Shown here one piece after another: positions 14,428-31,491 of a DNA stretch of 53,144 bases (within the stretch, counting starts at the first letter, position 1; every line of letters starts with the position of its first letter). The notes under the pieces were generated by a model. That model saw only the letters and a program-made list of their open reading frames with translations, had not been told where the DNA came from and did not search any database. The position numbers and the translations under genes were made by a program. The stretch comes from a virus (taxonomy: Duplodnaviria > Caudoviricetes), in IMG/VR virus record IMGVR_UViG_3300019875_000001, positions 1 through 53,144 of that record; one strand, given 5' to 3'.

Positions 14428-14442
14428 ACACAGCGAGTGCTC

Positions 14443-15012: not shown

Positions 15013-15031
15013 GTGATCGGAGGTTATCCCA

Positions 15032-15376: not shown

Positions 15377-15529
15377 TAGGCTCACTGGTACGGTTTATCA
15401 GGACCACTGCCCCGAGGGAGAGAGATAGAGAGCGCTTGTCGCCGATAGGTCATGAGCGAGGGGAACGCCGAATAACGAAATAGGTCAGTTCCCCTTCCCA
15501 TCTTCAGTTTATTCCTCCTATCTGATTGC

Positions 15530-15673: not shown

Positions 15674-16166
15674 ACATCACCTCAACTGTAATTATTACAC
15701 TTTTGCTTATTCCTCTTTTGGCCTTGGCTCCCTGAGTAACCTCGTCTTTTCTGCTCGGCTGCCTATGTAACCTCCCCCCGATCGCCTGTGCGCAGGAGTC
15801 ACATTCGCTCGTTTGTGACTCCCATCTTTCCTATTAGCGCCATCGGGTGAATTCCCGCTATCCGTACTACTATCTACTCAATGTAATAATTACACTCCTA
15901 GCGAGCATTGCGCTTTAGCGCAATGCGAGCGGCTCAGGGCGCACGCTAGGCCAGTGCACCCGCAAGTACCGGACACATGCGGTCAATCGATCCTAGAGCC
16001 TGCTAGGCACAAGTACGGCACCCTGTACAATCGCTCAGTGAGTGCATCGCGGCGGGTCAAATCGACCAATCGATCTAGTGCGCCACTATGGGACTAACTC
16101 CTATGCCGAATGGACCATAGACTAACGCCTAGAAAAATCAGAAACATACACCACTTGAAAGTGTGC

Positions 16167-16247
16167 TGTGGAAAACTCTGTAACTTTTTACTCTTTCTGT
16201 GGAAAACGCAATCTTTCCTGTGGATAACCGCGATATTCTGTGGATAA
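16167..16247 (-). promoter_or_regulatory. Four co-oriented DnaA boxes (candidate origin)
   Basis: TGTGGAAAA at 16167 and 16198, TGTGGATAA at 16219 and 16239; all match TTWTNCACA on the minus strand. Confidence 0.7.
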
Positions 16248-16280
16248 AAAAGGCGAAATTGAGGCGAATAGACCAGTATA

Positions 16281-17040
16281 GTCGTGTGATGGCACGACCA
16301 AACACGCATAGTATGAGAGACAAAATAAAAATCGAATGTGGCGAACGAGACACCACACTACGGAATGGCTCAGGGACTAGACCTGAGAACGCGCTAACCG
16401 ACAAAGGGAACAGTTACAGATCTACATTACGGCGAGATCCTAACACCTGAACTCATAGCCCCGTGATAAGCGGATAGTATGAGCACTCCTCGCATGATGT
16501 ACCCTGCGCGATACATACACTACTACGCCTAGAGGTGCTGTAACCCGAACGGGACCTAGGCGTACGGTGTCAAATAAGGTCATAAGAGAACCGCGATAGC
16601 TTGAACAGCGGTATGGATCTACACTAAGAGCCTAATGACTAGCGCCTGAGTGCGCGATAGGCTATGGATACGTAAGGCGGGAGTTTAGCTTACGTGTAAG
16701 CCCCGGTGATGAATCGGGCAGACAGAGAACCCAGGGCGAAAGCTTAATTAGCTGGGCCTCACTGAATCCAGAGATTGTAGAAGGTCTAGACCAATAGACT
16801 GAAAAGTGCTTAGGGCGGACGGCCCTAGACATGAACATGGATTGGGTAGTGGAAAGAGTAAACGGAGTAAGTGAATCGGTTGTATTGAACGCCACGTTAT
16901 ACGGTGATTGTCCACGGACAAGAGTACAGCGCGGGTAGTAGACAGACTGATATCGAATAGCTCTAGGTAACTGGCCACGATAAAGATAACCGTAAATATT
17001 ACACTTTAAGCGGACGGTGCTGGTATAGGCCGTCCGCTTG
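16281..17040 (+). ncRNA. Candidate large structured RNA (family not identified)
   Basis: No credible plus-strand ORF; more than ten local stems and nested long-range pairings. Confidence 0.4.
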
Positions 17041-17103
17041 TATTTATTCCCAACACAGTAGACTACTCGCCATCAGTGAGTAGCCTATAGGGGGAGTAAA
17101 CGT

Positions 17104-17289
17104 ATGTACTTGGTATGCGACATAGGAACCAATGAGAACATTAGCTCACACAGAGTGCTTAGCAGAGCCGTAGCTAAGTGCAGGCAGTTGATTAGCACTT
17201 GCATTCTATGGGAATGCGCCCACTGCTATGCAATCTATGACTTACACCTTAACCAGTGTCCATCTTGCAAGACTAAGAGGGAGAAATAG
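17104..17289 (+). CDS. Small Zn-ribbon protein
   Basis: CAHC...CPSC; GGAG SD. Confidence 0.55.
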   Translation: MYLVCDIGTNENISSHRVLSRAVAKCRQLISTCILWECAHCYAIYDLHLNQCPSCKTKREK

Positions 17290-17478
17290 ACATGAACTTA
17301 ACGCCGGTCGATTCAATCGCAGTATTCGCAGTGCTCATAGCCGTATACGCGATAGGCAGAGCCTACAAAGTAGCCTGCCCGAGTAAAGCTAAGCTGTACC
17401 GTAAACGCTGAATACCTCAGGTGCTATCACTCAATGCCAGAGTGATAGCTCTTGTCTATTCAGACACACAGGAGGAAT

Positions 17479-17946
17479 ATGAATAACATGCAGTTAGCTC
17501 TGATTCACTCCAGCGCTAACCCTAAGCCTGGAGAGAACAACCAAAGACTAGAGTTCCTGGGAGATGCAATCTTAGAGTTGATAGTCTCCGAGTATCTCTA
17601 CGCTAATCACCCCAATATGAATGAGGGTATGCTGTCAATCGCAAGGTCTAACTTTGTGTGTAAGGCTAATCTTGCGGCTGTAGCTTGCCGAATGGGACTA
17701 GGAGATAGGCTGATTCTGGGTAAGGCTGAACTTGGCCAGCAAGGTAAACATAAGCCTAGTATCTTAGCTGACGCAGTAGAGGCGCAGATTGGAGCTATCT
17801 ATCTGGAGTATGGGATGGAGACAGCTAAGAAGTTTGTTTATCAGTGGGTGCTGGGGTGTTCAACACCCAAGGTAGACATTGAGAACTGTGATCACTGCTG
17901 GAGAGTACTAGCTAGGCAACAAAGCTGTTGCCCATTCCACTTCTAA
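17479..17946 (+). CDS. rnc: Ribonuclease III catalytic domain without dsRBD
   Basis: ALIHSS, NQRLEFLGDAIL signature, EG.LS..RS, LADAVEA.IGAIYL; start may be 17488. Confidence 0.92.
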   Translation: MNNMQLALIHSSANPKPGENNQRLEFLGDAILELIVSEYLYANHPNMNEGMLSIARSNFVCKANLAAVACRMGLGDRLILGKAELGQQGKHKPSILADAVEAQIGAIYLEYGMETAKKFVYQWVLGCSTPKVDIENCDHCWRVLARQQSCCPFHF

Positions 17947-17974
17947 CCGTAATTATTACGCTTTTGGAGGATAA

Positions 17975-18259
17975 ATGCAGACAATCGAATTAGAGGTAGG
18001 TTACGGACATAAGAGCAAACATGAGCTTAAACAGTTCCGCAACCCTGTAGGCTTAGCCGAGATGATACGCCACTGTGATAGTAACTCTCACATCTGGTTT
18101 AAGTCTCTTGACGGCACAGCTAGGAGGGCCAAAGTGAACGGCAAGGTTCGCACGTGGAAGAGAGATCCAGGGCGAATAGAGATACCAGTCAAGTACGGAA
18201 TGTATGAGTACGGCGTATTCAGTGCTTCAGATATTGACCGTATCTTGATCGAGATTTAG
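17975..18259 (+). CDS. Hypothetical early protein
   Basis: GGAGG SD; ORF. Confidence 0.65.
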   Translation: MQTIELEVGYGHKSKHELKQFRNPVGLAEMIRHCDSNSHIWFKSLDGTARRAKVNGKVRTWKRDPGRIEIPVKYGMYEYGVFSASDIDRILIEI

Positions 18260-18307
18260 TTAACTACTAGGCTGGACTGAGAAGTCCAGCCAATGGAGGA
18301 TAACTTA

Positions 18308-18676
18308 ATGAAAGCATCATTCGACCCAGAGTATGCGTATCATCTGGGTTACCATGACGGGTTAGAAGACGGACACAAAGACCCTAAGAGGGATTTCACC
18401 ACAGCTAACAAAGACGCGCGTACTGTGGCCTACTTTGCAGGGCTGAAAGTGGGCATGGCCCAAGCTCAGAAAGAAGGGCTTGATATGAGGTGTCTAGTGC
18501 GGTGGGATAACCCAGGATTCGACACACCCCCGTGTGAGAGTAAGTCTCACTATCTGGCCTTTGCGTATGGGCATGTGATACCCCTTTGCATACGGCACGC
18601 ATTCAAGATATTCCTTGACACTGAGGGCAAGCCTGACGCTACCCAGTGGACAATTATCCCCAAGGATTGGATTTAG
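18308..18676 (+). CDS. Hypothetical early protein
   Basis: SD supplied by the upstream hairpin element. Confidence 0.6.
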   Translation: MKASFDPEYAYHLGYHDGLEDGHKDPKRDFTTANKDARTVAYFAGLKVGMAQAQKEGLDMRCLVRWDNPGFDTPPCESKSHYLAFAYGHVIPLCIRHAFKIFLDTEGKPDATQWTIIPKDWI

Positions 18677-18758
18677 GAGGTGTCAATGAAACTGTAAGAG
18701 CCGCTGAGGGCTAGCTAGTGGTTATGAACGCTCCCTAGTTAGCCCCATGAGGTAACTT

Positions 18759-19070
18759 ATGAATTTACCAAGTGTGAAGACGTTGGAGCCTATCACCCGA
18801 GATAGGGAAGCCGCTAAGAAAGTGCGGCGATTGTTGGAGGGTGTACGGCTAGGTCCAGTAACTACAGCCTTGATGAGGATTGATCAGGAAGACTTGATAC
18901 CACGGGGTTATGGGGTTGAGACTATACGCCGAGGTGAGGGCAAGAAGTCGCCGGGGATTCACTATATCAATCGGGGTGATCCGTATGTCTCAACTCTGAT
19001 GTATATCGAAGGGCTAGGGTTTAGGGTAGGGTGCTGGGGTGACATTGTGGAGCGGGGCAAGTACAAGTAA
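18759..19070 (+). CDS. Hypothetical early protein
   Basis: GAGGT SD; YINRGDPYVSTL...WGDIVE. Confidence 0.65.
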   Translation: MNLPSVKTLEPITRDREAAKKVRRLLEGVRLGPVTTALMRIDQEDLIPRGYGVETIRRGEGKKSPGIHYINRGDPYVSTLMYIEGLGFRVGCWGDIVERGKYK

Positions 19071-19106
19071 CTCACTAGGCTACGGTGAAAGCGTAGCCAA
19101 TGGGAG

Positions 19107-19295
19107 ATGCTTATGACTTTAGATGACGCAGTATGTGAGGCTCACAAAATTGCCAATAGCAGTGGGGTTAGTGTCCTGGTGTACAAGGCTACCCACAATG
19201 ATTTGGGTGAGTATGGCGTAGCCTACACTTTGCCCATGTGGGGTGAGAGGGTTGGAGACAGGATTTATCCTGGTGGAGATACTCATGAGCTTTGA
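19107..19295 (+). CDS. Hypothetical early protein
   Basis: ORF after a hairpin element. Confidence 0.5.
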   Translation: MLMTLDDAVCEAHKIANSSGVSVLVYKATHNDLGEYGVAYTLPMWGERVGDRIYPGGDTHEL

Positions 19296-19515
19296 CAAGA
19301 TTGCAGCGGTTTACGTGTGGTGCTCTGATAATCACAGTGGCCAGTGGTCACGAGGTTACCGGATCATGTCACGCATAGCCAAGATGAGAATCAATCTCAC
19401 TGATAATGCCTGGGAGGCTATACAGTGCGGCACAGGCCGAGGTAAAGATGAATGGGCTGAAGCTAGAGAGATGTATCTCAGGTTGAGTCTAATGAAGTTG
19501 AGACGGCCAGTTTAA
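19285..19515 (+). CDS. Hypothetical early protein
   Basis: GGAG SD; HSGQWSRGY motif. Confidence 0.55.
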   Translation: MSFDKIAAVYVWCSDNHSGQWSRGYRIMSRIAKMRINLTDNAWEAIQCGTGRGKDEWAEAREMYLRLSLMKLRRPV

Positions 19516-19691
19516 TCACTAGGCTAGGCTTGCGAGTCTAGCCAATGAGGTGAAACTATGGACAGGATAACGGTGATTATGACTGGTGACCCTCCCCCAG
19601 GCGAGTATGAAGAGTGGAAGAATGGGCAGTGGGTAGCCTGCAAGTAATCCGCTAGAAAGCGTAATTATTACGCTTTCGCTGAGGTTTGCTT

Positions 19692-19850
19692 ATGTTTGAA
19701 AGTTTGAAGGGAACAGTATTACCATTCGCTCTTGTGTTCGCTATTGTCATGTATCTGACTGTAGCCTTAACCGACAAGTTCATGAAGTGGCTGGATAGGC
19801 GCAAGTGGAACAGGATCTTGCGTACCATTGATTGGCCTAAAGAGAACTAA
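19692..19850 (+). CDS. Small membrane protein
   Basis: GAGG SD; one hydrophobic helix. Confidence 0.45.
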   Translation: MFESLKGTVLPFALVFAIVMYLTVALTDKFMKWLDRRKWNRILRTIDWPKEN

Positions 19851-20069
19851 ATGGTATACAGCTATATCATTTCCTATTCAAAGGGCACAGGTTTTGCCTT
19901 TGACGGTATACAGCTGGATAGGTACGTAACCCAGCTGCTAGTAACTGGGATTCCAGCTGAGGAGATAGAGATCAAGGTAAATACAGCAAACACATCTAGA
20001 AAGTAACTCACTAGGTCTAGCCGTGAGGTTAGACCAATGGGGGCTACTGCCCACCAGGAGATTAAACGT

Positions 20070-20321
20070 ATGGCTGATATGACATTCGCAGATTTGAAGA
20101 AAGAGTATGCCCGTATACAGGCCGAGAATGCTTCCTTGAAAGCACGCTCACAACGGGCTATAACCATGAAGGTGAGTGAGAAGGGAGGGCTGTCCCTGTA
20201 TGGTCTGGGCAGGTTCCCAGTCACGCTCTACCATGAGCAGTGGACTAAGCTGCTAGCCATGGCAGAGGATATCAAGTCCTTCATCGAAGAGAACAAGGAC
20301 TCGCTCAAGTCCAAGGAGTAA
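20070..20321 (+). CDS. Conserved hypothetical protein
   Basis: KVSEKGGLSLYGLGRFPVTLY..QW, recalled as a recurrent small-protein family; AGGAG SD. Confidence 0.7.
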   Translation: MADMTFADLKKEYARIQAENASLKARSQRAITMKVSEKGGLSLYGLGRFPVTLYHEQWTKLLAMAEDIKSFIEENKDSLKSKE

Positions 20322-20323
20322 TC

Positions 20324-20569
20324 ATGGAGGACTTAGAGAAGCAACTCAAGGCATCTCTGGGTAAGCTGCTGGCTCCTCTCCGTAAAGAGCATGATAAGGC
20401 TGTGAGGCTACATGCTGAGCATAAGCTCAAGGCTGAACAGTATTACGCCCAGTCAAGATCCATCGGGGCTAAGATCCGGGAGATTGAAAAGGCTGTAGGT
20501 ATCAAGACTTGGACTCAGCGTAAGATGGCTAAATTTGAGGAGCGGAGCGACGTTACCCCGAAGGGGTGA
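20324..20569 (+). CDS. Hypothetical coiled-coil protein
   Basis: AGGAG SD; coupled to the upstream gene. Confidence 0.55.
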   Translation: MEDLEKQLKASLGKLLAPLRKEHDKAVRLHAEHKLKAEQYYAQSRSIGAKIREIEKAVGIKTWTQRKMAKFEERSDVTPKG

Positions 20570-20657
20570 CGGAGCGGGTCCAGAGTCACAGGCTAGAGGG
20601 TGCTGAGAAGTGCCCTCAATGACTGTAATTATTACGGTCAGAACGAATGGAGAGTGT

Positions 20658-21839
20658 ATGAATAAACGACAGACGGCACGAGTAAACCTTGTGACGGCCA
20701 GCAGAGAATGGGCTTCACGCCCAGCAGACCAGCGATTCTGGACCCTGAGAGAGTTATTCGACAGGTCCAAGAAGTATGCAGAGGAGAGCTATATCCACAA
20801 GGTAGAGCTATCCGGTACCACTGCTGTAGCTCAAGGTGGTGATCTGGTCCTAGACATTGGGACATCAGATCCCGCGACATTCCAGCATTACAGCTTCGGA
20901 CAGCTTTGCAACATTGCCGGGGCTCCTGCTGGATATCTGCGAGGGTTACCAGCTGGATTGGCTGCTGAGAATCTCAATCACGGCCTATCCCACACTGACG
21001 GCGAACAGGTTCTCATGCTTCACAAGAATGGGGATCATGTGCTGAGGTGTGTAACCTCTAACGAGTACAGCCGAATCTGGAACTATGAAGTTGCAGAGAT
21101 GGCATTGGCTCTTGAGGAGGGTGAAGGCTGGATGACACCGCCAGCAAGACCCTGTGGCATCCAGGGGATTCCATCTCGCCGCGCAACCGCTGATGATGTA
21201 CTCCGCAAGAGTGCTCATCCAACTCTGGGTATCGAGATTGGTGATGAGATCTCACCGGCTGGGCTGTACGCTTCGGATCATGATTGCTTTATCTTCCAAG
21301 TCAATGAGGATCACCCGATTGACGCGGGAGGTGGAGAGATGCTCTACCGTGGCGTGTTTTGGAAGAACTCTGAGGTTGGTGATGCGCGATTCACTGGGAC
21401 TATGTTCCTCTATGACACGATATGCGGTAATCATATCGTCTGGGGGGCTAAGATCATTGCAGAGATCAGCATACCTCACCGGGGCAATGCTAAAGAGATC
21501 TTCCGTGAGGCCATGGCGATAGCAACTCATAACGCTTTAGCACCGGCAAGTGAGGATGAGAATCGTATTCAAAAGGCCAAGATGTATGAGATCGGCCCAG
21601 GTCAGCCTGAAGTAATCAAGGCTGTGTTTACCAAATTCTCCGGTTACATCAGCAAGCGTGAGTGTGAAGACGCTTACGTCATGGCCACTCGCCACGCTGA
21701 GGATCACAACACTGAGCCCAACACGGCATGGGGTTATGCCTCTGGGATCACTCGCTTATCACAGGGTCAGCACGCGGACAGCAGAGATAGGCTGGACCGT
21801 GTAGCTGGTCGGGTTTTGGAGATGGCTCTAGTTCGCTGA
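20658..21839 (+). CDS. DUF932-family protein
   Basis: W.SRP.D.RF..L, SFGQLC..AGAP.GY, LYASD.D.FIF.V, RG.F..NSEVG, C.NHIVWG. Confidence 0.8.
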   Translation: MNKRQTARVNLVTASREWASRPADQRFWTLRELFDRSKKYAEESYIHKVELSGTTAVAQGGDLVLDIGTSDPATFQHYSFGQLCNIAGAPAGYLRGLPAGLAAENLNHGLSHTDGEQVLMLHKNGDHVLRCVTSNEYSRIWNYEVAEMALALEEGEGWMTPPARPCGIQGIPSRRATADDVLRKSAHPTLGIEIGDEISPAGLYASDHDCFIFQVNEDHPIDAGGGEMLYRGVFWKNSEVGDARFTGTMFLYDTICGNHIVWGAKIIAEISIPHRGNAKEIFREAMAIATHNALAPASEDENRIQKAKMYEIGPGQPEVIKAVFTKFSGYISKRECEDAYVMATRHAEDHNTEPNTAWGYASGITRLSQGQHADSRDRLDRVAGRVLEMALVR

Positions 21840-21894
21840 GCCACTTCATCAGGGCATCCTGGGGAGGGTGTCCGAATGGAGTAAGGAGGTAGTC

Positions 21895-22092
21895 ATGCGA
21901 GATAAAGAGAATAGTGTTCCTTTGAGTGCGGCTGAGTTCATCAAAGTGATAGATGAGCTTACTCTACCTGGAGCGTATCCCAAGGTGCGAGAGATTGCCA
22001 CGGTGTTACGGACTGCTAAAGACGGCAGACTAACCCAGAATGCAGTTTACAAAAAGCTGGGCCTCATTACAGGGGAGAGAAAAAAGCCGTGA
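21895..22092 (+). CDS. Stand-alone paralog of the ParB-like protein C-terminal domain
   Basis: AAGGAGGT SD; 19/56 ungapped identities to the C-terminus of 23195..24496. Confidence 0.75.
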   Translation: MRDKENSVPLSAAEFIKVIDELTLPGAYPKVREIATVLRTAKDGRLTQNAVYKKLGLITGERKKP

Positions 22093-22261
22093 TCAAGGGG
22101 TGCCCTAATGGAGGAAGCATGGGATTTACAGACCTAGTGAGGAATCAGGTTATCCCTGCTGTGAGAAACCTGTACCTCAGATCTATAGCAGAGAGTAACC
22201 CAAAACAGGCACGTAGACATGGGGATCTATACAGTGCTCTGCTGAAATGGCTGGAGGATAG

Positions 22262-22438
22262 ATGATCAAGGTAGCTGGATTGCTGTATTTGACTGGGTTT
22301 ATCACCCTGTTGATACCCAGCTTATTCAACTGGCTCAACGAGTCTCACCCGCTCAATCTGCTGGTGTTTTGGTTGGTGGTGGTGATACTTGTTATCGCCA
22401 CAGTCATGATCATGTTAGTGGGGAGGCCAAGACGATGA
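22262..22438 (+). CDS. Small two-helix membrane protein
   Basis: GGAGG SD; two hydrophobic stretches. Confidence 0.45.
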   Translation: MIKVAGLLYLTGFITLLIPSLFNWLNESHPLNLLVFWLVVVILVIATVMIMLVGRPRR

Positions 22439-22599
22439 AGTGCAAGTGTGGGCATACGCTCGGGGATCATATCATTGAGGACGACTATTCGGCATGTGTG
22501 GGTGACATACCTAACGGTGCCTTGTACGTCACATCCTATACCGCAACCTGTGACTGTAAGCGATTCGCGCTAAAGGAAGAGCCTGTATTAGTTCAGTGA
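22435..22599 (+). CDS. Small Cys/His protein
   Basis: ATGA overlap; CKCGH...H...C...CDCKRF. Confidence 0.5.
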   Translation: MKCKCGHTLGDHIIEDDYSACVGDIPNGALYVTSYTATCDCKRFALKEEPVLVQ

Positions 22600-22917
22600 G
22601 GCTTGAGTCAAACTGTAATAATTACACTTTGGCTCTGGCACCGCTCAGGTATCAATACACTATACCTTAAGTGGCTTGGCTTTACGCGTTCAAGGAACGC
22701 TCTAAAACCATTATACCAAGCTGTGTCAAGCTTTGTCTAGGGGGAATATGCACAATTTACAAATCTTTACAAAGGGGGTACGCTATGGCAGTGTGGCTAG
22801 TGTCTATACGGCGTGAGGGCTATGAGGCTCTGCCTTTTACAGGCTCTGAGCTTAAAGAGGCTCTGACGTTCAATGCTGAGAACGGTAGTATACTCATCCA
22901 GGTAGAAGGGAGTCAGT

Positions 22918-23052
22918 ATGAAGTTCTTGGAATCATACGCAAATACACTCTCTAGGCTGTGGTGCCGCATGTTTCACCGGCATATCACAAGAGCGGTCAA
23001 CGGGCACTACACTTGCTTGTCCTGCTTCAGGCGCTATCCCTGCAACTTCTGA
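22918..23052 (+). CDS. Small Cys/His protein
   Basis: GGAG SD; LWCRMFH.HI...VNGHYTCLSCFRRY. Confidence 0.5.
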   Translation: MKFLESYANTLSRLWCRMFHRHITRAVNGHYTCLSCFRRYPCNF

Positions 23053-23118
23053 CATTCAGACACAGGCGTAATAATTACACTTTTTGCTAAAGTGTTGATA
23101 ACGCTCTGTCGATTTCTG

Positions 23119-23147
23119 TTGACTCCAGGTCACCATGCGGCTAGACT
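23119..23147 (+). promoter_or_regulatory. Sigma70-like promoter of the ParB-like gene
   Basis: TTGACT-17 nt-TAGACT. Confidence 0.65.
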
Positions 23148-23194
23148 GGTTTCAACGGCAACAAACTAGCCGATCAAAGAGAGGAAAAAAGAGA

Positions 23195-24496
23195 ATGACA
23201 CCTGGATTGAACGATACGATCATGCTTACCCCAGCTAACCTGCTGGTCACCAAGAATACCCGCTTCGGGCTGTTGCCCGTGAAGGTGAAAGATCTGGCAG
23301 AACAGATCAAAGACGCCGGGCAGGTTAACACCTACCTGACGGTTGAAGAACTGGCAGAGCCGGGTCCTAGTGGAGAGACTCACTGGTTACGCGAGGGCCA
23401 TTACCGTAAGGCAGCTGTCGAACTGCTGGCCAAAGAAGGGTTGGAGATTCCTCTACCCTGCACGGTCGTGGAACCTCTGGAGGGTGTAAGCCGCACCAAG
23501 CACCAGATCTCGGAGAACTGGCACCGCACCGATTTGACGCCCATGGACATGGCCGTTGCAATCGATGAACTGCTCCACCCTGTGGACGGTAGCGAGGGCA
23601 TGAAGAAAAAGCGGGTGTGCGAACTCTTCTCCCGCGCTGGTGGTCGTAAGGGTCTGGCCATGGCCCCGTTGAGTAACTCAATGCTCAACATCTACCTCAG
23701 CTTCCTCCTGTTCCCCAAAAAGATTCAGCAACTCATCCACGAGGGCAAGATCGGGGTCCTCAAGGCTCACTTCCTCAGCAAGAAGGACAAGAGCGAATGG
23801 GATGTGGAACTGAAAAAGGCAGAGGATGCGCGTGAGGCTGAGATCAAGCAGTTTGAGGACTTGGAAGCTTCCTTTGTCGCCGACGAGTTGAAGGCGGTAG
23901 AGGACGACAAGAAAGCCAAAGAAGCCGCTGAGGCTCTCATCAATGCGGAGAAGATTGCAGCTGACGCTAAGGCCACTGCCGCCGACAAGCTGAATGCTGC
24001 CGCTGATGCCCTTAAAGCTGCTGGTGCCGTACCCGCCGCTGACAAGGAAAAGAAGAAAGTGGCTCAGGAGCAGTTCAAGGCTCGTGAAGCTGAGGCCAAG
24101 CAGGCTGAGAAGGAAGCCACTGAGAAGCAAGCCGCTGCCGACAAGCTCAAGCAGAAAGCAGAGAAGAACTTGCTGCTGGCTAAAGAGCGGGCTGAGAAGC
24201 TGGACAAGGCTCGCAAGGATGCCCAGGCCAAGCTTGCTGGTAAGAAGCTGGATATCGGCGGGGCTGAACCCTCTGCCCCTGGTGATGGTAAGGTCAAGCT
24301 CAAGGGGCCTGAGATCATCAAGCTTGCGGAACAGATGGCTCTTGCCGGGTCCTTCCCCAAGGTCGAAAAGATCTTCAAGGCCTTCCTCCGCTGCATTAAC
24401 TCGGAGATCACTGATGCTCAACTCACCAGCGAATGCGGTTGGATCACGGGAGAGCGTAAGGACCGCCCGAAGCACCTTCCTAAAGAAGTCAAATAG
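23195..24496 (+). CDS. ParB/Srx-family protein with HTH region, long K/A/E coiled coil and C-terminal domain
   Basis: LAEQIKDAGQV..L.V, EGHYRKAA (GxxR-like), SENWHRTDLTPMD, PKKIQQLIHEGKI. Confidence 0.8.
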   Translation: MTPGLNDTIMLTPANLLVTKNTRFGLLPVKVKDLAEQIKDAGQVNTYLTVEELAEPGPSGETHWLREGHYRKAAVELLAKEGLEIPLPCTVVEPLEGVSRTKHQISENWHRTDLTPMDMAVAIDELLHPVDGSEGMKKKRVCELFSRAGGRKGLAMAPLSNSMLNIYLSFLLFPKKIQQLIHEGKIGVLKAHFLSKKDKSEWDVELKKAEDAREAEIKQFEDLEASFVADELKAVEDDKKAKEAAEALINAEKIAADAKATAADKLNAAADALKAAGAVPAADKEKKKVAQEQFKAREAEAKQAEKEATEKQAAADKLKQKAEKNLLLAKERAEKLDKARKDAQAKLAGKKLDIGGAEPSAPGDGKVKLKGPEIIKLAEQMALAGSFPKVEKIFKAFLRCINSEITDAQLTSECGWITGERKDRPKHLPKEVK

Positions 24497-24921
24497 ACTT
24501 CCTCTACAGGGGGCTCTTGCGAGAGTCCCCGATAGGGTTAACGCTTTTGAGGGATTAGACACCCCTCCCTCTACGCCCAGACTGGTAGGTGTGTGGCTCT
24601 TTCTCTGGGAGGCCGCACAGGCGTTAACCCGTAATTATTACACTTGGTGGTCTGCCCCATAGCCGTAAGGATGGGGCTAGGCTGAAAATCAGCTGTAACG
24701 AGGACGCCCAGCGACTTTCACGCTGCAAGCGTAAAGCCTTACAGCGGGCCACCCGAATTTAAATGGAGGGATCATGCTTAACATTGCTGTGGCCGTGCTG
24801 ATGACTCTTGCTTTCTTGGGGACGCTGTACGATCTGCTAAAGCCTTGGCGGGATAAGAGGTTTGAGGCACGCTGGAAACGAAAGAGGGGGCTCTGAGGGG
24901 AGGGGGCTCTAAGCCCCCATC

Positions 24922-25140
24922 CTACCGTGGTCCTAGTCCTCCCTTCCTCTTCCCAGCCAGCTTCACATGCTCATCCAAGTCGGTTAACAGGGTGTCCAAT
25001 AGATCCACACTGCGCCTGACCCTCTTACGGATGAAGTTCCTTTCCAGTTGACCCCCAACATTCATGAAGTGCCGTTTAACTCTGGGGTCTACTGCGTCTA
25101 TCTCAGCTTTCGTTAGTGGTTTCATTTTCCTCTCCTTCAA
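24922..25140 (-). CDS. Hypothetical basic protein
   Basis: Last ORF of the leftward block; start may be 25125. Confidence 0.5.
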   Translation of the reverse strand: MKERKMKPLTKAEIDAVDPRVKRHFMNVGGQLERNFIRKRVRRSVDLLDTLLTDLDEHVKLAGKRKGGLGPR

Positions 25141-25167
25141 GTGTAATTATTACGGTTATCTTGACAC

Positions 25168-25196
25168 AAAAAAGCGGGAGGCACTGAGCCCCCCGC
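25168..25196 (-). terminator. Intrinsic terminator
   Basis: GCGGGGGGC...GCCTCCCGC followed by T6. Confidence 0.65.
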
Positions 25197-25217
25197 ATAA
25201 GTGTTAGGGAAGGTTAT

Positions 25218-26225
25218 CTATTCGGCCACGAACAAGCAGTCCAGATGCACGATGGGGATTGTTAGCCACCTGTTCTGCATGTCTCTGTAGTCGGTAAACG
25301 GGAAGCCGTTCTGGGGGTTAAACTTCCCGAATCTGCACCCGCTTCCAATTACGGATGCCTTGAATGCCAGCCACACATCCAGGGCCTCTTGAGTAGTTCC
25401 TCCTACTCTTTGTGCCACTGTTGTAGCGGGGTTTTCAATGTCCCACCCAAAACCGTACTGGTGAGTCTCCGAGGTAGACAGAACACCCCACGAGGGTAAG
25501 GCGTAGCCTAATCCCCCTTCAGCGAAACGGTTGTCACCCCACCCTCCGTTAGGCAGTGTTCCTGTCATTACGCGCGGAATGATGCCGTGCGAGTTTCCTG
25601 CATATATGGCGAAATTGTACATCATGACTTTTATCATGTGTACAGATACGGCCTTGCCATACCTGGAGTATCCAGGCTGACCATTTTGGTCCCAGTGTCT
25701 GGTATCCACGGGAGAGTCTAACGGCCCCGTATAAGCGTTTGCTGTCAGTGGGACGAAAGGATGGGGGTTGCCGCTGTAGTCATAATCCGACACCTTGAGC
25801 CGATTGAACCATGTAACGGTGGGCAGATTGTCGGTGATGTGGCTACCCTGCATTGTGGTGTCAATGATCCCGCTGAAGTTTGCATTCCTGTATGCGAAGT
25901 CTGGCGTACATGCTTCTGTGCCAGCTGCATTTAGAACCGTGGTCATTGTGATAGGGCTTTGGTACGAGCCAACAGGCCGCGCCACCGAATCAAAGAACTG
26001 GTGAGTGTGCCAGTCCGTTCCAGCACGCATCTGGGTGTATACATCAATTTGTTTCCCAGGCAGTGGGGTTTGAGTGAAAGGTGGTGTTAGTGAACGTCGT
26101 GCGGCGCAGTACGAGTGATACATAGTCTTCCACGGCAGCACGTTCTCGCCTTCGGTAGGTTCTTGAGCCATTGCCGAGAACAGGCAGAGTAGAAAGCAGA
26201 TAAGTAGAAGTGTTGAGGTTTTCAT
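25218..26225 (-). CDS. Exported protein
   Basis: MKTSTLLLICFLLCLFSAMA-QE signal peptide. Confidence 0.7.
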   Translation of the reverse strand: MKTSTLLLICFLLCLFSAMAQEPTEGENVLPWKTMYHSYCAARRSLTPPFTQTPLPGKQIDVYTQMRAGTDWHTHQFFDSVARPVGSYQSPITMTTVLNAAGTEACTPDFAYRNANFSGIIDTTMQGSHITDNLPTVTWFNRLKVSDYDYSGNPHPFVPLTANAYTGPLDSPVDTRHWDQNGQPGYSRYGKAVSVHMIKVMMYNFAIYAGNSHGIIPRVMTGTLPNGGWGDNRFAEGGLGYALPSWGVLSTSETHQYGFGWDIENPATTVAQRVGGTTQEALDVWLAFKASVIGSGCRFGKFNPQNGFPFTDYRDMQNRWLTIPIVHLDCLFVAE

Positions 26226-26266
26226 GGTTGTCGTTTTCCTTTCTTGTGTAATTATTACGGTTTGCA

Positions 26267-27766
26267 CTACCATACGGGAGGCTGAGGGAACCCGCTAACC
26301 CCAATAACGAAATAGACCAATGCTCCGATGTAATTGTCATCATTCATTGGGCCGTACGTCGTCGTGGGGTAAGCCGGATCTGGGGTTTGGCTGCCTAGAT
26401 AGAACTGAACAGTAGTCATGCCTATGAGGCTGTTGAGGATTTGACTGTTCCACTCAAAGAAGCCTGTGGCGTCCGTATACCCCAGTAGGCACCCGCCATC
26501 TACTTCATGACCGCTTATCCCTACGGTGGGGCTACACAACACTTCTTCAATCCATGCACCATCAGTGAATCGCATCGCCCGACGCTGTACCCAAACCTGC
26601 TGGTTTGGCCTACCGAATCTGATTCGGAATGTAACAGGGTCACCGACTTGGTAAACGCGCAACGCCATAGTATCCAGGTTTTGCCCAGCCTGCGATAAGG
26701 TGACTCTCGACATGTTCACCTCCCCAGGGTTCAAGGTTGCCGGGGATTCTTTTACATACCCTATGATTTGGTATTGCGGGACTGATATCGTCAAAGCCCC
26801 GAATAGGACAGGAGCGTTAGCCTGATTTTGAGCATTAGCCGCATACCCCCATATATAGCGAGTTCCCGAGAATGAGGGTTTAAAGGTGAGTGTGATAGTG
26901 TGCGTCTTATTTGTGCTGGAGCCAGTCTGGGAGAAGTTCACCTCATCACACTGTGAGTTACCCTGTAGCCCTGTGCTGTAAGGCGCACTCCACCCATTTC
27001 CGGCATCATTAAGCAAAACACCGTCTGGGTTGTCTTGAGGCGCATAAGACCAGCACCCGCCGTTTCCGTTAAACGAATTGGAAGCCGTTATCCCAAATTG
27101 GCTGGAGCCGCCCGTCGCGCCTTGGTAGTTGGTATAGAACGTGAAAGTCTGAGTTGCGCTGTCACCGCCTGGGGTTGGACCCGCCATGGTGATTACTGGA
27201 AGAGGAGGCGCTCCTACAGTAAATGTGCCTACCACAGTCCATGGGTATAATGCCTCGTAGGGAGTCTCGGACATGGTTCCAACATAAGCCCAAATGTATT
27301 TCAGGCCAGTGTTTGACGATGGGAAAGTCACTCCGCTCATCTGAAAAGTAACAAGTCCACCCGATACGGAAGCCTGAACAGCACCAGAATTAAAGGTGCA
27401 AGAGCCGCTACTAGGGGTGATGGATGTCGGCGGGGTGTGGTGAAGCCACGCAGTTGCGCCGCCATGTCCGCCAGTGCTAAGCATGTCGTCATACCCGCCA
27501 TTGTCTTGAGGCAGGCTGTACTTCATGATGCAACTGGAGCCTAGCTGTCCTTGCGGGTTGGTGTTGGAGTTACCAAACATCACGTACAGATGAGCCATGT
27601 GTGCTGTAGTGCCCGTGTTGGACTGTGCATACATGACGAAGCCCATACTCATTGCAGGCTGTGATGTCGGGTTGACTGACACATTGGATATTGTGGCAAA
27701 GCCCTGAACTGCAAACATGCAGCACAGAGCGAATGTAAGTAGAAGTGTCTTTATTTCCGTTTTCAT
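26267..27766 (-). CDS. Exported beta-rich protein with two related domains
   Basis: Signal peptide; two TF.....G..YIW.Y segments; NSQC. Confidence 0.75.
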   Translation of the reverse strand: MKTEIKTLLLTFALCCMFAVQGFATISNVSVNPTSQPAMSMGFVMYAQSNTGTTAHMAHLYVMFGNSNTNPQGQLGSSCIMKYSLPQDNGGYDDMLSTGGHGGATAWLHHTPPTSITPSSGSCTFNSGAVQASVSGGLVTFQMSGVTFPSSNTGLKYIWAYVGTMSETPYEALYPWTVVGTFTVGAPPLPVITMAGPTPGGDSATQTFTFYTNYQGATGGSSQFGITASNSFNGNGGCWSYAPQDNPDGVLLNDAGNGWSAPYSTGLQGNSQCDEVNFSQTGSSTNKTHTITLTFKPSFSGTRYIWGYAANAQNQANAPVLFGALTISVPQYQIIGYVKESPATLNPGEVNMSRVTLSQAGQNLDTMALRVYQVGDPVTFRIRFGRPNQQVWVQRRAMRFTDGAWIEEVLCSPTVGISGHEVDGGCLLGYTDATGFFEWNSQILNSLIGMTTVQFYLGSQTPDPAYPTTTYGPMNDDNYIGALVYFVIGVSGFPQPPVW

Positions 27767-27841
27767 GTGGGTTTCTCTCTTTCCAAACCGTAATAATTAC
27801 ACTGGGGAACCCGTTAGAGTCCCCCAGCACGGGACTACCTA

Positions 27842-28384
27842 CTAAACAACGGGGTTGGGAACGAATTCTCCGAATGAGATCTCGCCCAGTACTGCGCCCT
27901 GATCCGGGTCATACACATCCAGCAAGCCGGTCAGAACGATGTCCTTCTTGCCGTCGCCAAGATCGCTGTCAGCATCGACAGAGATAATGACAGACTGCAC
28001 CGGGGTGTCTTCCGGTACGGCGGCGGTCACGATGCTGCATGTGAGGCCGTCTGATGCGGGTGTCAGGGTTGCGAATTCCGGCGGGTCTGCTGTCCAGACG
28101 GGAGGGCCGTCAGTCCGCCCCTTTCCACCGTTTTTCTTGGTATAGGACACCGTGCCGATGCCCGTTGCGTTCATTGGTACTTTCATTTTGAAGTTATCTC
28201 CTTCTTTCGTGGTGCTGCCAAAGGTTATCCGCAGTGTTCCCTTTTCTGCGGGGGGTAATGTGACAGCTAACAGAATCTCTTCAATCTTTGCGCCTTGATC
28301 TGCTAGGATTGTCTCTAGCTTGTCAAACCGCGCCATTATCCGAGCTTCTGTTCTCTGCATTTCTTCTAGCAACTCAGCGAACAT
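27842..28384 (-). CDS. Coiled-coil plus Ig-like protein
   Basis: N-terminal heptads; DGPPVW...ISVDADSDLGDG. Confidence 0.6.
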   Translation of the reverse strand: MFAELLEEMQRTEARIMARFDKLETILADQGAKIEEILLAVTLPPAEKGTLRITFGSTTKEGDNFKMKVPMNATGIGTVSYTKKNGGKGRTDGPPVWTADPPEFATLTPASDGLTCSIVTAAVPEDTPVQSVIISVDADSDLGDGKKDIVLTGLLDVYDPDQGAVLGEISFGEFVPNPVV

Positions 28385-28404
28385 TCTAATTCACCGCTCC
28401 TATT

Positions 28405-28674
28405 TTACATCACCTTATCAGTCTTACTGCTAACATCGTGTACAGCGTACTTGTCTGCTATACACTGGTCTATATAGTCCGCTAAGGACTTGTCACGGAC
28501 TACAAAGATGTCAAACTCGTGTACGGGTCCAGGCTCTCTCCCCATGGTTATGTTGCGGCGGGCATAAGACACACCCTGTGAAGGCAGAGACATCACCTCG
28601 TGAATGATGCGGTACACCTCTCTACCTAAGTGGGTCAGAGCAGCTAGGGCGTTAGCCTGTTTGGGTGTAATCAT
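28405..28674 (-). CDS. Hypothetical protein
   Basis: Start probably the TAATG overlap inside the palindrome at 28667. Confidence 0.5.
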   Translation of the reverse strand: MITPKQANALAALTHLGREVYRIIHEVMSLPSQGVSYARRNITMGREPGPVHEFDIFVVRDKSLADYIDQCIADKYAVHDVSSKTDKVM

Positions 28675-28898
28675 TACGCTTTTCTCCCCGTGCAGCGTTT
28701 CAGCCGTGAAGCCTCCAGCCAAGCATGACGGGCATTGTCAACCTCTGCCTTACCTGACTTGCCCCAACTGTACTCAACTCTGCGAATGGCGTACTGCTTA
28801 TCCAGTCTCGCCACCTCCAAGCAGTTCTCACACTCCCCGCAATCAGGCTCATGAACCATCTGGAACCGAGCCGCCTTTGCTGCCAGAGAATCGTACAT
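28674..28898 (-). CDS. Hypothetical Cys-containing protein
   Basis: HEPDCGECENC; stop codon inside the palindrome. Confidence 0.5.
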   Translation of the reverse strand: MYDSLAAKAARFQMVHEPDCGECENCLEVARLDKQYAIRRVEYSWGKSGKAEVDNARHAWLEASRLKRCTGRKA

Positions 28899-28899
28899 A

Positions 28900-29277
28900 C
28901 TACCTCCAAATTGATCCGTTAAGCCTCACCAGCCGACTAATGCTATCCCATTTCCTAATTAGCAGCTGTGTGTTGCTGAGGTTGAAGACGTAGGTGTACA
29001 TGTCCCCATCATCCACGGGTCCAGTATGCACCAGTAAGTTATGGGTCACCATCACTAAAGGGTCAGGCACGATAGCCACCAAGCTGTGTGTGATGTCAGT
29101 TATCTCTCCGCTCTGAGCCGTGTAGGAGGATTCTAGCAGCACTCCATGAGGTATCCTGCCCTGACACAGAGCCGGGATGATGACGGAGTGCGGGGTGTAT
29201 AGCTTGAAGGGGAGATGCTCAAGCCAGACTACCTCTTTGTTGCCTTCTCTGTCCATGCTGGATAGTTTATGTAGCAT
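28900..29277 (-). CDS. Degenerate dUTPase-fold protein
   Basis: LYTPHSVIIP...PHGV and VFNLS....IRKWDSISRLV resemble the trimeric dUTPase scaffold; catalytic motifs not seen. Confidence 0.4.
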   Translation of the reverse strand: MLHKLSSMDREGNKEVVWLEHLPFKLYTPHSVIIPALCQGRIPHGVLLESSYTAQSGEITDITHSLVAIVPDPLVMVTHNLLVHTGPVDDGDMYTYVFNLSNTQLLIRKWDSISRLVRLNGSIWR

Positions 29278-29290
29278 AAAAGTGTAATGA

Positions 29291-29977
29291 TTACGGTTTG
29301 TAGAGGCCGACGTTGAAGTGTTTGCCACCAGGGGATACGGATTCAGTCCAACCGACCACGTTGAGTCCGATAAAGTTGAACAGGGAGCGCAGTTCATAGT
29401 CCGAGTAGTGCCAGATGTGCTCATCGTGCCACGGAGCATTAGCGTGTTTGGCCTCATCGTAGGAGGGCATTGCACCAATCTCTTTGTAGCGGTGGGTGAT
29501 CGCGCCCCAGCTATCCCGATTGGGAGTAGACAGGTACATGATTCCACCATGCCGTAGAGATGCGGCAATCTTTGTCAAGGTCTGGAGCGGGTGAAAGTTG
29601 AGGTGTTCCAGTACCTCAGTCATGATTACCGTGTCATAGGTGTCAGGTGCTAGTGTTGGGCAGTTACGCTCAATATCACCCTCTAGCGCAATCAGGTGGA
29701 AAGTGTCAATCACCTCCAGACTCATGAAGGGCACGCGGTCTAGTGTGGTCACCGACTTTGCATTCAGCGAGGATGCCAAGCACGCCAGAGTACCGTAGGC
29801 GGGGCCAATATCCAGCACGTCTCCCAGCTTGTGGGATTGCTTCCACATCCACCACGGGATAGCCCCCACGTACCCAGCCTCCTCACCAGAGTATCTAGTG
29901 GTGTAGTAGTTATCTGGGCCGTAGAGGGCGACTAGCTTCTGTTGCACTGGTGCCAAGATCGAATGGGTCTTACTCAT
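29291..29977 (-). CDS. Class I SAM-dependent methyltransferase
   Basis: VLDIGPAYG, YDTVIMTEVLEHL, L..GG..YLSTPN. Confidence 0.85.
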   Translation of the reverse strand: MSKTHSILAPVQQKLVALYGPDNYYTTRYSGEEAGYVGAIPWWMWKQSHKLGDVLDIGPAYGTLACLASSLNAKSVTTLDRVPFMSLEVIDTFHLIALEGDIERNCPTLAPDTYDTVIMTEVLEHLNFHPLQTLTKIAASLRHGGIMYLSTPNRDSWGAITHRYKEIGAMPSYDEAKHANAPWHDEHIWHYSDYELRSLFNFIGLNVVGWTESVSPGGKHFNVGLYKP

Positions 29978-30171
29978 TGCAAGTCGAGTGTCCTTTGATT
30001 GGGGTCTACAGTGGGCATGTTCACCACTGTGATACTACTGATCTCGGCATCCGTGATTGGTCCTGTAACGCGGGTGTGAATAGCCTGCTTGATGTAGTCA
30101 TCCGTCCAGTAGTCTGGGATGGACAACTCGTAACTAACTGTCACTTTTCGGTTCTGTTGTGGTTCCGACAT
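29974..30171 (-). CDS. Hypothetical protein
   Basis: Overlapping ORF in the operon. Confidence 0.45.
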   Translation of the reverse strand: MSEPQQNRKVTVSYELSIPDYWTDDYIKQAIHTRVTGPITDAEISSITVVNMPTVDPNQRTLDLQ

Positions 30172-30430
30172 AGCTTGTATCCTTTGGTTGGAGAACGTCT
30201 GGCAGTGTTGGGGCCAATCCAGCCCGTTGGAGTAGCAGATAGTTCACATCAATGACGTGAGCCCTGCAAGACCTTAGAGTTAGTGTGGGCGAGGAGAATG
30301 TCTCTCTGCCCATGTGACCCACTGGCCCTGGTTCGGCTGGATCGTTGTAAGTGAGCCAAAACTCTACCGGAGCCTCACACAGGGTGCATTTGCTTGGGGT
30401 AGCTTTCCGAATCTTGATTGATTTCTCCAT
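30134..30430 (-). CDS. Hypothetical Zn-binding protein
   Basis: CTLC...CRAH. Confidence 0.5.
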   Translation of the reverse strand: MEKSIKIRKATPSKCTLCEAPVEFWLTYNDPAEPGPVGHMGRETFSSPTLTLRSCRAHVIDVNYLLLQRAGLAPTLPDVLQPKDTSYVGTTTEPKSDS

Positions 30431-30475
30431 AAGTGTAATTATTACGCTCAGTCCAGAATGGGTGTCACCTCTCCG

Positions 30476-30976
30476 CTAAGTGGTGGACTCATCATCCGGT
30501 GCATCCTCCTTGGTGATGCGCAGAGTGTAGGATGCCGCTTCGGTGTAGCAAGCATTAATGGTCGTGATGGGCACACCAGCCGCTAGGAGTTTGGCGGGGT
30601 CCAGGACCTTGCGAGGGGCATTGTAGTAGTTAATGCGGTAGTCACCCAGCAGAGCCTTACCGATCTTGTACTTGCCGATAACGACCTTGATGGACTCAGT
30701 GAGCTTTTTCTTCTCCTTGTCCAAGGGCCGTATGATCTCGCCAATCTCACCGTGGCGGGTTACCATGCGGGCAAGCTCAAAGCGTTTCTTGGCGTCAGGT
30801 ATCACCGTGGCGTCAATGACTGGGATAACCTCCTCCTCTTTCTCTGGCGGGGCCTCAGGGGCCTCAGCCGCTTGAGGAATCATGGAAGGTGCCTCAATAT
30901 TAGCAATCGCCTGAATTCTCTCCCGTATGCTCAGTACTTTCGGCTTCTCAGCCAAGTGTTTGTTAAAGTCCACCAT
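30476..30976 (-). CDS. Hypothetical protein
   Basis: GGAGG SD downstream of a strong promoter. Confidence 0.65.
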   Translation of the reverse strand: MVDFNKHLAEKPKVLSIRERIQAIANIEAPSMIPQAAEAPEAPPEKEEEVIPVIDATVIPDAKKRFELARMVTRHGEIGEIIRPLDKEKKKLTESIKVVIGKYKIGKALLGDYRINYYNAPRKVLDPAKLLAAGVPITTINACYTEAASYTLRITKEDAPDDESTT

Positions 30977-30997
30977 AACGTAAATGCCTCCATTACA

Positions 30998-31026
30998 AGT
31001 ATAGCAACCTTGTGTCTGATTGTCAA
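30998..31026 (-). promoter_or_regulatory. Sigma70 promoter
   Basis: TTGACA-17 nt-TATACT. Confidence 0.8.
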
Positions 31027-31209
31027 TAGGTACCCAAAATAGTGTTCTGGGGTTTTTCAGAACGGGCTACTTGGATTTCTCGGATTTAGAATCCGATTTA
31101 GTTTCGGTATTAGGTGCCAGAGCCTTCTGCAATGCATAATAGAGATCTAGCAGATACCGGATGTCGTGCGGGCCTTCCTGATTGTTTGGTGTGCTCATAA
31201 CTGTAATTA

Positions 31210-31491
31210 TTACGCTTCCTCTATAGTGATATCAAAGCAGCTGAGATCCACGGATGGCCGCACCCAGTAGAACATTTCATACTGCCCTATAGGTGTACGC
31301 CTGTAGTAATTTCTACGCTTGGGTGACACTTGGGCACAGGCCTTAAATGGCTTGGTCCGGTTGAGCACAAAGATATAGGTCAGTCCTGCCAGTTTCCATT
31401 CCTTCCTGTACCATCCCCAGGGAGGCTCACAACCCTCAGGAATGGTAGGTAGATGCATAAGTTCCATTGTCATTTTGGTAGATCCCCCCAC
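31210..31491 (-). CDS. Hypothetical protein
   Basis: Overlaps the polymerase stop; its own stop lies in the palindrome. Confidence 0.5.
   Translation of the reverse strand: MGGSTKMTMELMHLPTIPEGCEPPWGWYRKEWKLAGLTYIFVLNRTKPFKACAQVSPKRRNYYRRTPIGQYEMFYWVRPSVDLSCFDITIEEA

Follow-up and report, generated by a model that had tools for sequence, protein, structure and literature searches.

The genome of a tailed phage, IMG/VR record IMGVR_UViG_3300019875_000001 (Duplodnaviria; Caudoviricetes), carries 38 copies of one short palindrome dispersed over its length, two of which flank an orphan gene for a ParB/KorB-like protein with a long coiled-coil arm. This arrangement raises the question whether the protein reads the palindrome array. 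The stretch analysed here, called the window in the following, is the whole record of 53,144 bp, which is rated 96% complete. Switches with the cytidine triphosphatase (CTPase) fold of ParB act in chromosome and plasmid segregation (ParB), in nucleoid occlusion (Noc) and in long-range silencing on plasmid RK2 (KorB). The phage protein is very probably a new architectural variant of this ParB/KorB kind and a member of a large phage family that is so far uncharacterised; a helical hairpin of about 150 residues occupies the place of the flexible linker found in ParB and KorB. Among the explanations considered, reading of the 38-site array by this protein ranks first, tentatively and with a somewhat less than even chance of being right.

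If the protein does read the array, tailed phages without ParA and without a sign of lysogeny would possess a KorB-like genome-wide system. Its architecture, with a coiled-coil arm in place of a linker, would bear on clamp size and on the bridging of DNA, and it would offer a way into the dispersed palindromes of phages such as those of Cluster O, which have long lacked an explanation. The family concerned comprises 227 clusters at 50% identity, none of them characterised, and the sites are short and defined, which opens the question to a direct test with one protein and one oligonucleotide.

The ParB/KorB-like protein and its family

Because Pfam is silent on this protein, its assignment to the ParB kind rests on PHROG 4715, on a profile search and on the predicted fold. 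In PHROGs, the protein matched PHROG 4715, 'ParB-like partition protein', with an E value of 3.5e-8. A profile built from 21 sequences and compared with the PDB found Noc, Spo0J and ParB chains at E 3e-6 to 8e-6 and KorB at 0.012. Profile positions 25-240 align to Noc 49-243, indicating that a ParB-type helix-turn-helix (HTH) domain is present, and the HTH alignment to ParB and Noc contains insertions around GGRKG and SMLNI. Foldseek returned 29 PDB matches at E ≤ 0.001, headed by ParB, Noc, Spo0J and KorB (~190-213 columns, E 1e-7 to 3e-5) and followed by PadC, sulfiredoxin and a serine kinase. Against the assignment stands the outcome in Pfam, where no family was found for the protein at E ≤ 1 and the gathering score of PF02195 (ParB_N) was missed.

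A preliminary description of this locus, made from the letters alone, had proposed a ParB N-domain with GHYR and ENWHR, an HTH-like region with an insertion, roughly 150 residues of K/A/E coiled coil, a compact C-domain and the lack of an adjacent ParA. All of these features were recovered. Both motifs of the N domain lie opposite their counterparts in Noc and Spo0J in the profile-PDB alignments (Table 1), and the HTH-like region aligns with its insertions as described above. In the AlphaFold2 (AF2) model, which has an overall predicted local distance difference test (pLDDT) score of 83.2, the N domain and the HTH reach to about residue 195. The coiled coil is modelled as an antiparallel hairpin of helices 199-278 and 284-347, about 150 amino acids (aa) rich in K, A and E, with pLDDT values mostly of 79-92 that drop to ~62 toward its C-terminal end. 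Residues 348-370 form a low-confidence linker to the compact C domain, which consists of three helices. A dimer prediction with two copies and the family alignment scored 0.34 against a mark of 0.42 and counts neither way. The ParA families CbiA and AAA_31 had no match anywhere in the 96%-complete record, and the controls were positive in 14 of 14 genomes. Likewise, no string fitting the ParA-binding motif (L/F/I)G(K/R)G(L/F/I), as defined in PMC12704722, occurs in the translated open reading frame (ORF).

The C domain had no Foldseek match at E ≤ 0.001 (best VIA Z 4.7), and as modelled it is a generic three-helix bundle without recognisable kin. A 74-aa ORF at 21868..22092 (+) encodes a stand-alone paralogue of this domain (E 1.1e-5, 32% identity to residues 365-423). 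Its similarity is greater to the C domains found elsewhere (44% for that of relative G010) than to the one of its own genome (32%), and as a separate ORF it was found in the window only, none of the 15 other genomes or fragments having it. A role as partner of the C domain or as competitor for it is conceivable.

The full ORF extends from 23135 to 24496 (+) and encodes 453 aa, of which 433 remain when translation is counted from the ATG at 23195. In a family alignment of 21 rows, 17 begin at or within a few residues of the methionine at 23195, three are shorter or truncated at that end, and one (P0008) is longer N-terminally. As most rows begin near this position and a GAGG lies upstream of it, the ATG at 23195 was retained as the likely start, with 23135 as the alternative.

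A word-based search found 22 proteins including that of the window itself, most of them 414-446 aa long and 37-62% identical; a precomputed PF02195 match was recorded for one of the 22. An exhaustive profile search extended the family to 5,593 proteins at E ≤ 0.001, 405 at E ≤ 1e-10 and the 227 clusters mentioned above at E ≤ 1e-30. Nearly all of the 150 clusters listed out of these 227 are 411-497 aa long and match the profile from end to end, which indicates that the four-part architecture is conserved. In 144 relatives with a mean column identity of 27%, R23, G68, R71, D118 and S160 are invariant, and N21, Q104, N108, R111, P116, K152, N161, N165 and H182 are conserved in at least 90%. By alignment, the conserved residues are the positions of the ParB nucleotide pocket and those of the HTH recognition helix. 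No relative of the protein was found by tblastn in 50,697 deposited phage records or among 185,579 species represented by one genome each. The family is seen only in viral and metagenomic DNA, and in the protein atlas the protein adjoins viral ParB_N clusters. Literature searches yielded no description of the family or of its pairing with palindromic arrays, and one on dispersed inverted repeats of phages turned up nothing of relevance.

The palindrome array and its occurrence among relatives

In the window, GTAATWATTAC occurs at 33 sites, compared with 0.01 expected. With up to one mismatch allowed, GTAATNATTAC has 42 matches compared with 1.05 expected; 38 of these are exact, with A or T (33), C (4) or G (1) at the centre, and four contain one mismatch. 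The flanks carry the symmetry out to about 21 bp. Sites are spaced at a median distance of 1288 bp, and 23 of the 38 are intergenic or lie at the edge of an ORF. These counts agree with the 38 sites of the preliminary description, and the two palindromes that it had placed on either side of the ParB-like gene were found there as well (Table 1). A site within 125 nt upstream of the ParB-family gene is present in 11 of 16 genomes.

Full-length relatives of the gene were obtained from 13 IMG/VR contigs and two new metagenome fragments, and ten of these records were taken whole. A dispersed palindrome is the top inverted repeat in all 16 cases, that is, in the window and in the 15 gene-carrying relatives, with 17-44 copies in the ten related whole records and 3-14 in the fragments. 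No array of this kind is present at 20 control phage loci that encode other ParB-N proteins, where the top palindrome count is 5 or less. The proposed check on the co-occurrence of gene and motif across related phages therefore gave 16 of 16 genomes or fragments as compared with 0 of 20 controls, a result that is partly built in because the relatives had been retrieved by the gene itself. In the reverse direction, a search by motif gave fragments only. Among the matches listed, 19 motif-rich loci lack the gene; 11 of them are homologous to parts of ParB-family genomes and eight are not.

The motif itself varies among these phages. GTAATNATTAC is present in 25-44 copies in seven of the related records (G001-G003, G006-G008 and G010). 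In G004 (L020-L021) it is replaced by 17 copies of GTAACNGTTAC with the half-site GTAAC, and in G005 (L022-L024) by 27 copies of GTATANTATAC with the half-site GTATA. G009 (L202-L204) has 21 copies of GTAAT-NN-ATTAC with a two-base centre at every site. Both spacings coexist in G006 (L193-L195), which has 25 sites with a one-base and six with a two-base centre, and L028 and L188 contain one two-base site each.

The sites have a clear relation to genes. In the 11 whole records, 331 sites were classed against a simple greedy ORF set. Intergenic positions account for 139 of them (7.3% of random positions), 50 straddle the end of an ORF (1.9% of random positions), 44 fall within the first 30% of an ORF and shortly ahead of a start (16.3%), and 98 are intragenic (74.5%). 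Intergenic and straddling sites together make up 57% of the total. The sites thus strongly prefer gene boundaries, though about 30% are intragenic. Proximity to any in-frame ATG is a weak signal, being found for 112 of the 331 sites and for 14-21% of random positions per genome. According to the list of sites, the central base is independent of gene direction.

Many sites lie 2-25 nt ahead of a start codon. At sites 48280, 46314, 10760, 13143, 29284 and 30435, the next start codon is merely 3-6 nt away, which leaves no room for a Shine-Dalgarno sequence at this part of the sites. A clear GGAGG is present at other genes (17949, 38188). This suggests that part of the genes may use a leaderless or otherwise unusual initiation of translation.

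An RNA hairpin or terminator was ruled out as the function of the repeat. Symmetry holds as far as the lone central base, and where the adjacent base is altered, the other half-site carries the mirrored alteration (GTAAC-N-GTTAC), at positions that could not pair in a hairpin. The mirrored change points to a symmetric dimer on duplex DNA.

The array is not bound to the structural genes. Those of the window are common only to G001, G004, G005 and G008. Common to nearly all records are the ParB-like gene, a split PolA, an ERCC4-like nuclease, a helicase, an HTH_3 protein and four unknown proteins. Since this replication module is shared by nearly all records and the structural genes by a few only, the array travels with the replication module and covers the rest of the genome as well.

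A different arrangement is found at 18 or more loci (including L080, L082 and L085), mostly from contigs of one metagenome. There, a single extended palindrome abuts the start of a conserved ORF, which encodes 163 aa in most cases; these loci represent one unrelated phage family without an array.

Table 1. Coordinates of the ParB-like gene, its parts and the other features discussed
Feature	Position	Strand	Details and evidence
ParB/KorB-like orphan gene	23195..24496	+	433 aa + stop; ORF, PHROG 4715, profile against PDB, Foldseek
Possible 20-codon N-terminal extension	23135..23194	+	In-frame ATG at 23135; extension in P0008, 1 of 21 family rows
ParB/Srx-type N domain, residues 8-135	23216..23599	+	Model elements; Noc/Spo0J alignments; invariant R23, G68, R71, D118
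GHYR at P-motif position (GxxR), residues 68-71	23396..23407	+	Opposite GERR of Noc/Spo0J; G68 and R71 invariant
ENWHR at box III position (ENxxR), residues 107-111	23513..23527	+	Opposite ENLQR; N108 and R111 at least 90% conserved
Predicted HTH DNA-binding region, residues 138-196, with GGRKG loop and SNSMLN helix	23606..23782	+	ParB/Noc HTH alignment with insertions
Antiparallel helical hairpin, residues 199-347, turn 279-283	23789..24235	+	AF2 model; least conserved part, 0.33 identity
Three-helix C domain, residues 371-418	24305..24448	+	AF2 model; pLDDT 87.3 when folded alone
Array of 38 exact GTAATNATTAC sites	1368..50898		Extended consensus AAAGY-GTAAT-N-ATTAC-RCTTT
Array palindrome upstream of ParB-like gene	23068..23078
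Array palindrome downstream of ParB-like gene	24631..24641
Xre-type HTH_3 protein, 128 aa	43086..43472	-	Pfam HTH_3 E 2.6e-6; array site 43497-43507, 25 nt upstream

Candidate readers of the array

In the proposed mechanism, dimers of the ParB-like protein would dock by their HTH domains on the two GTAAT half-sites of a palindrome, most copies of which are located in short gaps directly ahead of genes. Nucleotide binding at the N domain would then close or switch the dimer, as in ParB, Noc and KorB, and the rigid arm would determine how large the ring becomes or what distance between DNA segments is spanned. The protein might thereby regulate or organise the phage DNA across the whole genome, much as KorB does. 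Dependence on CTP and the role of the arm are suggested by analogy to the known switches. A more far-reaching version of this proposal, which appears doubtful at present, holds that a rigid SMC-like arm has replaced the flexible linker and that clamps with a large lumen, loading every 1.3-2.3 kb and for the most part directly ahead of genes, coat or insulate the whole chromosome of a seemingly non-temperate phage. This would amount to a virus-encoded chromatin that sets gene expression or that marks or organises the DNA for replication, packaging or protection.

Several observations are consistent with the ParB-like protein as the reader. Among 13 genomes with the same motif, conservation of the protein peaks in the HTH, where pairwise identities are 0.61-0.65; the corresponding values are 0.47 (N domain), 0.33 (arm) and 0.40 (C domain). 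This plausibly supports a role in reading the sites. The array spans structural modules of differing ancestry and the replication module is shared, so that a phage-encoded reader should sit in the latter, which contains the ParB-like gene. One- and two-base centres coexist, and loosely coupled DNA-binding domains would be suited to them. In addition, the exchange S160T and the loss of the GGRKG loop are seen in G004, the sole genome with GTAAC. Covariation of invariant residues with the motif variants is not discriminating, however, as the variant genomes are more diverged in all proteins. The preliminary description had regarded the protein as a candidate reader of the array. This view is partly supported, by the co-occurrence and by the ParB/KorB fold with its HTH; it is left with rivals, namely the HTH_3 protein, a Zur-like box and the use of the palindrome in a provirus without a ParB-like gene.

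A number of points weigh against the ParB-like protein as the reader, some of them in general and some in favour of a particular rival. Binding of the palindrome by the protein is a prediction from sequence comparison. G010 lacks the GGRKG loop and yet keeps the standard motif, and in the variant-motif genomes changes at otherwise invariant positions are no commoner in the ParB-like protein (9 of 31 columns) than in other core proteins such as orf228 (21 of 49), one of the unknown proteins of the shared module. GHYRKA stands in place of the canonical GERRxR with its glutamate, which CTP hydrolysis requires, so that nucleotide use may differ; neither sequence nor AlphaFold3 predicts which nucleotide proteins of the ParB-CTPase fold use (PMC12704722). 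The co-occurrence is weakened by the way in which the relatives were retrieved, and three motif-rich records without a ParB-family gene are known, which say little as they are fragments of 34-54% completeness. Other points concern the phage Xre-type protein with an HTH_3 domain, for which the array could represent dispersed operators, the ParB-like protein then having another task or another site. This alternative is unlikely on balance. The HTH_3 gene is present in nine of nine genomes that cover its region and is as conserved with the array as the ParB-like gene, and in seven of the nine an array site lies 4-42 nt before its start. A scan of IMG/VR for the motif, which gave at least 112 stretches, led to provirus L150 (G014), an inovirus-like element of 14.9 kb that is rated 100% complete and has a Zot-family gene nearby. 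At 4179-4332 this provirus contains three extended palindromes at intervals of 68-69 bp, with a 78-aa Cro-like gene on one side and an HTH_3 gene (E 4.2e-13) on the other, which is the apparent layout of a classical switch or triple operator. L150 has no ParB-like gene, and since the palindrome is used there, other proteins can use it. A similar switch region is seen in the small contig L119, where two palindrome copies (373-457) lie beside a homologue of the 78-aa gene. Dispersed repressor sites also have a precedent in the stoperators of Cluster A mycobacteriophages (PMC4351075). On the other hand, under an identical motif the HTH of the HTH_3 protein is poorly conserved, with a pairwise identity of only 0.37-0.45 and three invariant columns in seven sequences, and one of its helix-3 positions varies between R, Y, M and H. 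A rigid Cro-like dimer would not be expected to tolerate coexisting one- and two-base centres. The HTH_3 proteins of the window and of L150 share a generic similarity only (29% over 59 aa), and neither a tyrosine integrase nor any other sign of lysogeny was found in the record.

A single central base is typical of the inverted-repeat boxes of the Fur family, and the array repeat fits this pattern. The palindrome might therefore be a Zur-like box read by a metalloregulator of the host, which would couple phage genes to the metal or redox state of the host or titrate the regulator, the ParB-like gene being linked to it by shared descent alone. The extended consensus agrees with the Gram-positive Zur consensus at 18 of 20 specified positions, both mismatches falling on the symmetric position 7 from the centre (PMC545781), and a Zur-box probe from Bacillus contains the exact core (PMC3241647). 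The occurrence of the same palindrome in the unrelated provirus L150 points in the same direction. However, the half-site variants GTAAC and GTATA, the two-base centres and the presence of both spacings within single genomes, all among related phages, speak against a single host factor, and this explanation is given only a small chance. A FUR-family gene is present in none of six phage genomes of at least 96% completeness, so the reader would have to be the host's. In the 185,579 species genomes, the extended motif gave 102 single hits without a shared neighbouring gene family and with a largest cluster of 3. In metal-replete cells, some 38 boxes per genome would lead to the repression of almost every gene, for which we know of no precedent. 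Should a host regulator of the Fur family read the sites nevertheless, the phage would have wired nearly all of its genes to the metal sensing of its host.

It is distinctly unlikely, though a little less so than a host regulator, that another protein of the conserved module (orf166, orf228, orf297 or orf344) reads the array, or that the ParB-like protein works without site-specific reading, for instance as an enzyme activator. These four core proteins have no family assignment. Comparison with the PDB, by single sequences and by profiles, gave nothing useful for the unknown core proteins, and the protein atlas placed orf166 with unnamed viral clusters only. Many roles outside segregation have been described for ParB-fold proteins (PMC12704722, PMC13229309), and the ParB partners of phage T-dioxygenases act as activators (PMC13229309). 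Judged by their conserved residues, however, orf297 with a Walker-A-like GxxGKT and orf228 with a D...ExK pattern look like a recombination ATPase and a nuclease. The dioxygenase-linked ParBs are reported to lack a DNA-binding domain (PMC13229309), whereas the HTH is the most conserved part here. No dioxygenase was found among the proteins scanned.

Known systems and genome context

RK2 carries about a dozen KorB operators (OB), and the 38 sites found here are three times that number. KorB of the IncP-1 plasmid RK2 is the closest working model for the ParB-like protein. Both have a ParB-CTPase fold with a central HTH and a P-motif that departs from GERRxR and keeps the arginine of GxxR, and the fold match to KorB (8qa9) has an E value of 7.6e-7 and a template modelling score (TM-score) of 0.54 normalised to the target. 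In both cases many palindromic sites, putative operators in the phage, are dispersed over the replicon. KorB differs in having the ParA partner IncC and an N-terminal peptide for it; ParA is absent here, and the C domain of the phage protein has no recognisable relative. The operators of KorB on RK2 are palindromic and dispersed, lie near and far from promoters and have, like the array sites, a core with a single central base; the P-motif of KorB is GARRYR, the GxxR arginine being needed for CTP binding, and its clamp is locked by the small partner repressors KorA and TrbA (PMC11790492; see also PMC13584720 and PMC13768133). The conserved HTH_3 protein of the phage may be a candidate for such a clamp-locking role. 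The flexible linker of KorB comprises 53 aa (PMC11790492), in contrast to the hairpin of about 150 aa in the phage protein.

ParB/Spo0J with parS and Noc with its Noc-binding sites (NBS) provide the best sequence and fold matches (7ol9, 6sdk, 7bnk, 7nfu, 1vz0). Shared features are the ENxxR box, the GxxR arginine and an HTH with a conserved asparagine in the recognition helix. The phage protein differs from them in the lack of ParA and of a ParA-activating peptide, in GHYR instead of GERR and in its unlike arm and C domain, and its putative sites are spread genome-wide and not clustered. Numerous orphan homologues in phages and a diversity of nucleotide use are reported in a 2025 survey of the ParB-CTPase fold, whose main text does not deal with coiled coils (PMC12704722).

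Among phages, the closest parallel is provided by the Cluster O mycobacteriophages such as Corndog, which contain 34 copies of a 17-bp dyad repeat, for which a dimeric DNA-binding reader has been predicted (PMC4351075). As in the phages studied here, the palindrome is located between genes, near their 5' ends and inside genes, its central bases are not oriented, a gene with a ParB-like domain is present, and the phages are not obviously temperate (PMC4351075). The repeat sequence and its spacing (7-3-7) are different, the deposited phage records searched include no relative of the ParB-like protein, and the authors draw no link between the repeat and the ParB-like gene (PMC4351075). The stoperators of Cluster A phages (L5 gp71 type) also consist of dozens of short repressor sites in short intergenic gaps, but they are asymmetric, oriented with transcription and found in temperate phages (PMC4351075), whereas the sites here are palindromic and no lysogeny gene was found. 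The Gram-positive Zur box shares a nearly identical 21-bp palindrome with a single central base; Zur acts at a few zinc-gene promoters, in contrast to the 17-44 copies per phage genome seen here, which vary between related phages that have no FUR gene. The Nostoc cyanophages A-1 and N-1 contain 43 and 21 copies of an intergenic motif without an assigned reader (PMC4916379).

The DNA of the window is present in soil metagenome DNA runs, and no RNA run was listed. For its large terminase (11266-12666, -), the nearest counterparts are in Streptomyces phage Dagobah (45%) and Thermobifida phage P1312 (44%). A T7-like RNA polymerase gave no match, but neither did the control. Two ORFs, 31470-32963 and 34011-35384 (-), together make up the family A DNA polymerase; they lie about 1 kb apart, with small ORFs at 33154-33591 and 33718-34029 between them. 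The split is kept in relatives, and no relative of the polymerase above 30% was found in deposited phages. Upstream of the ParB-like gene, a large gene at 20658-21839 (+) matches PHROG 1362 (E 2.8e-17) and, weakly and below the cut-off, DUF932 (Pfam E 0.0014); it is common only to G001, G002, G010 and L188. Two large proteins with signal-peptide-like N termini and without a family match are encoded at 25218-26228 and 26267-27766 (-), each preceded by an array site. An RNase III-like protein of 164 aa is encoded at 17452-17946 (+) (Pfam Ribonucleas_3_3, E 1.6e-33), and an array site at 17949 follows directly after its stop codon. The protein was considered as a reader of the array and ruled out, since of the 11 whole records just the window and its closest relative G001 contain it.

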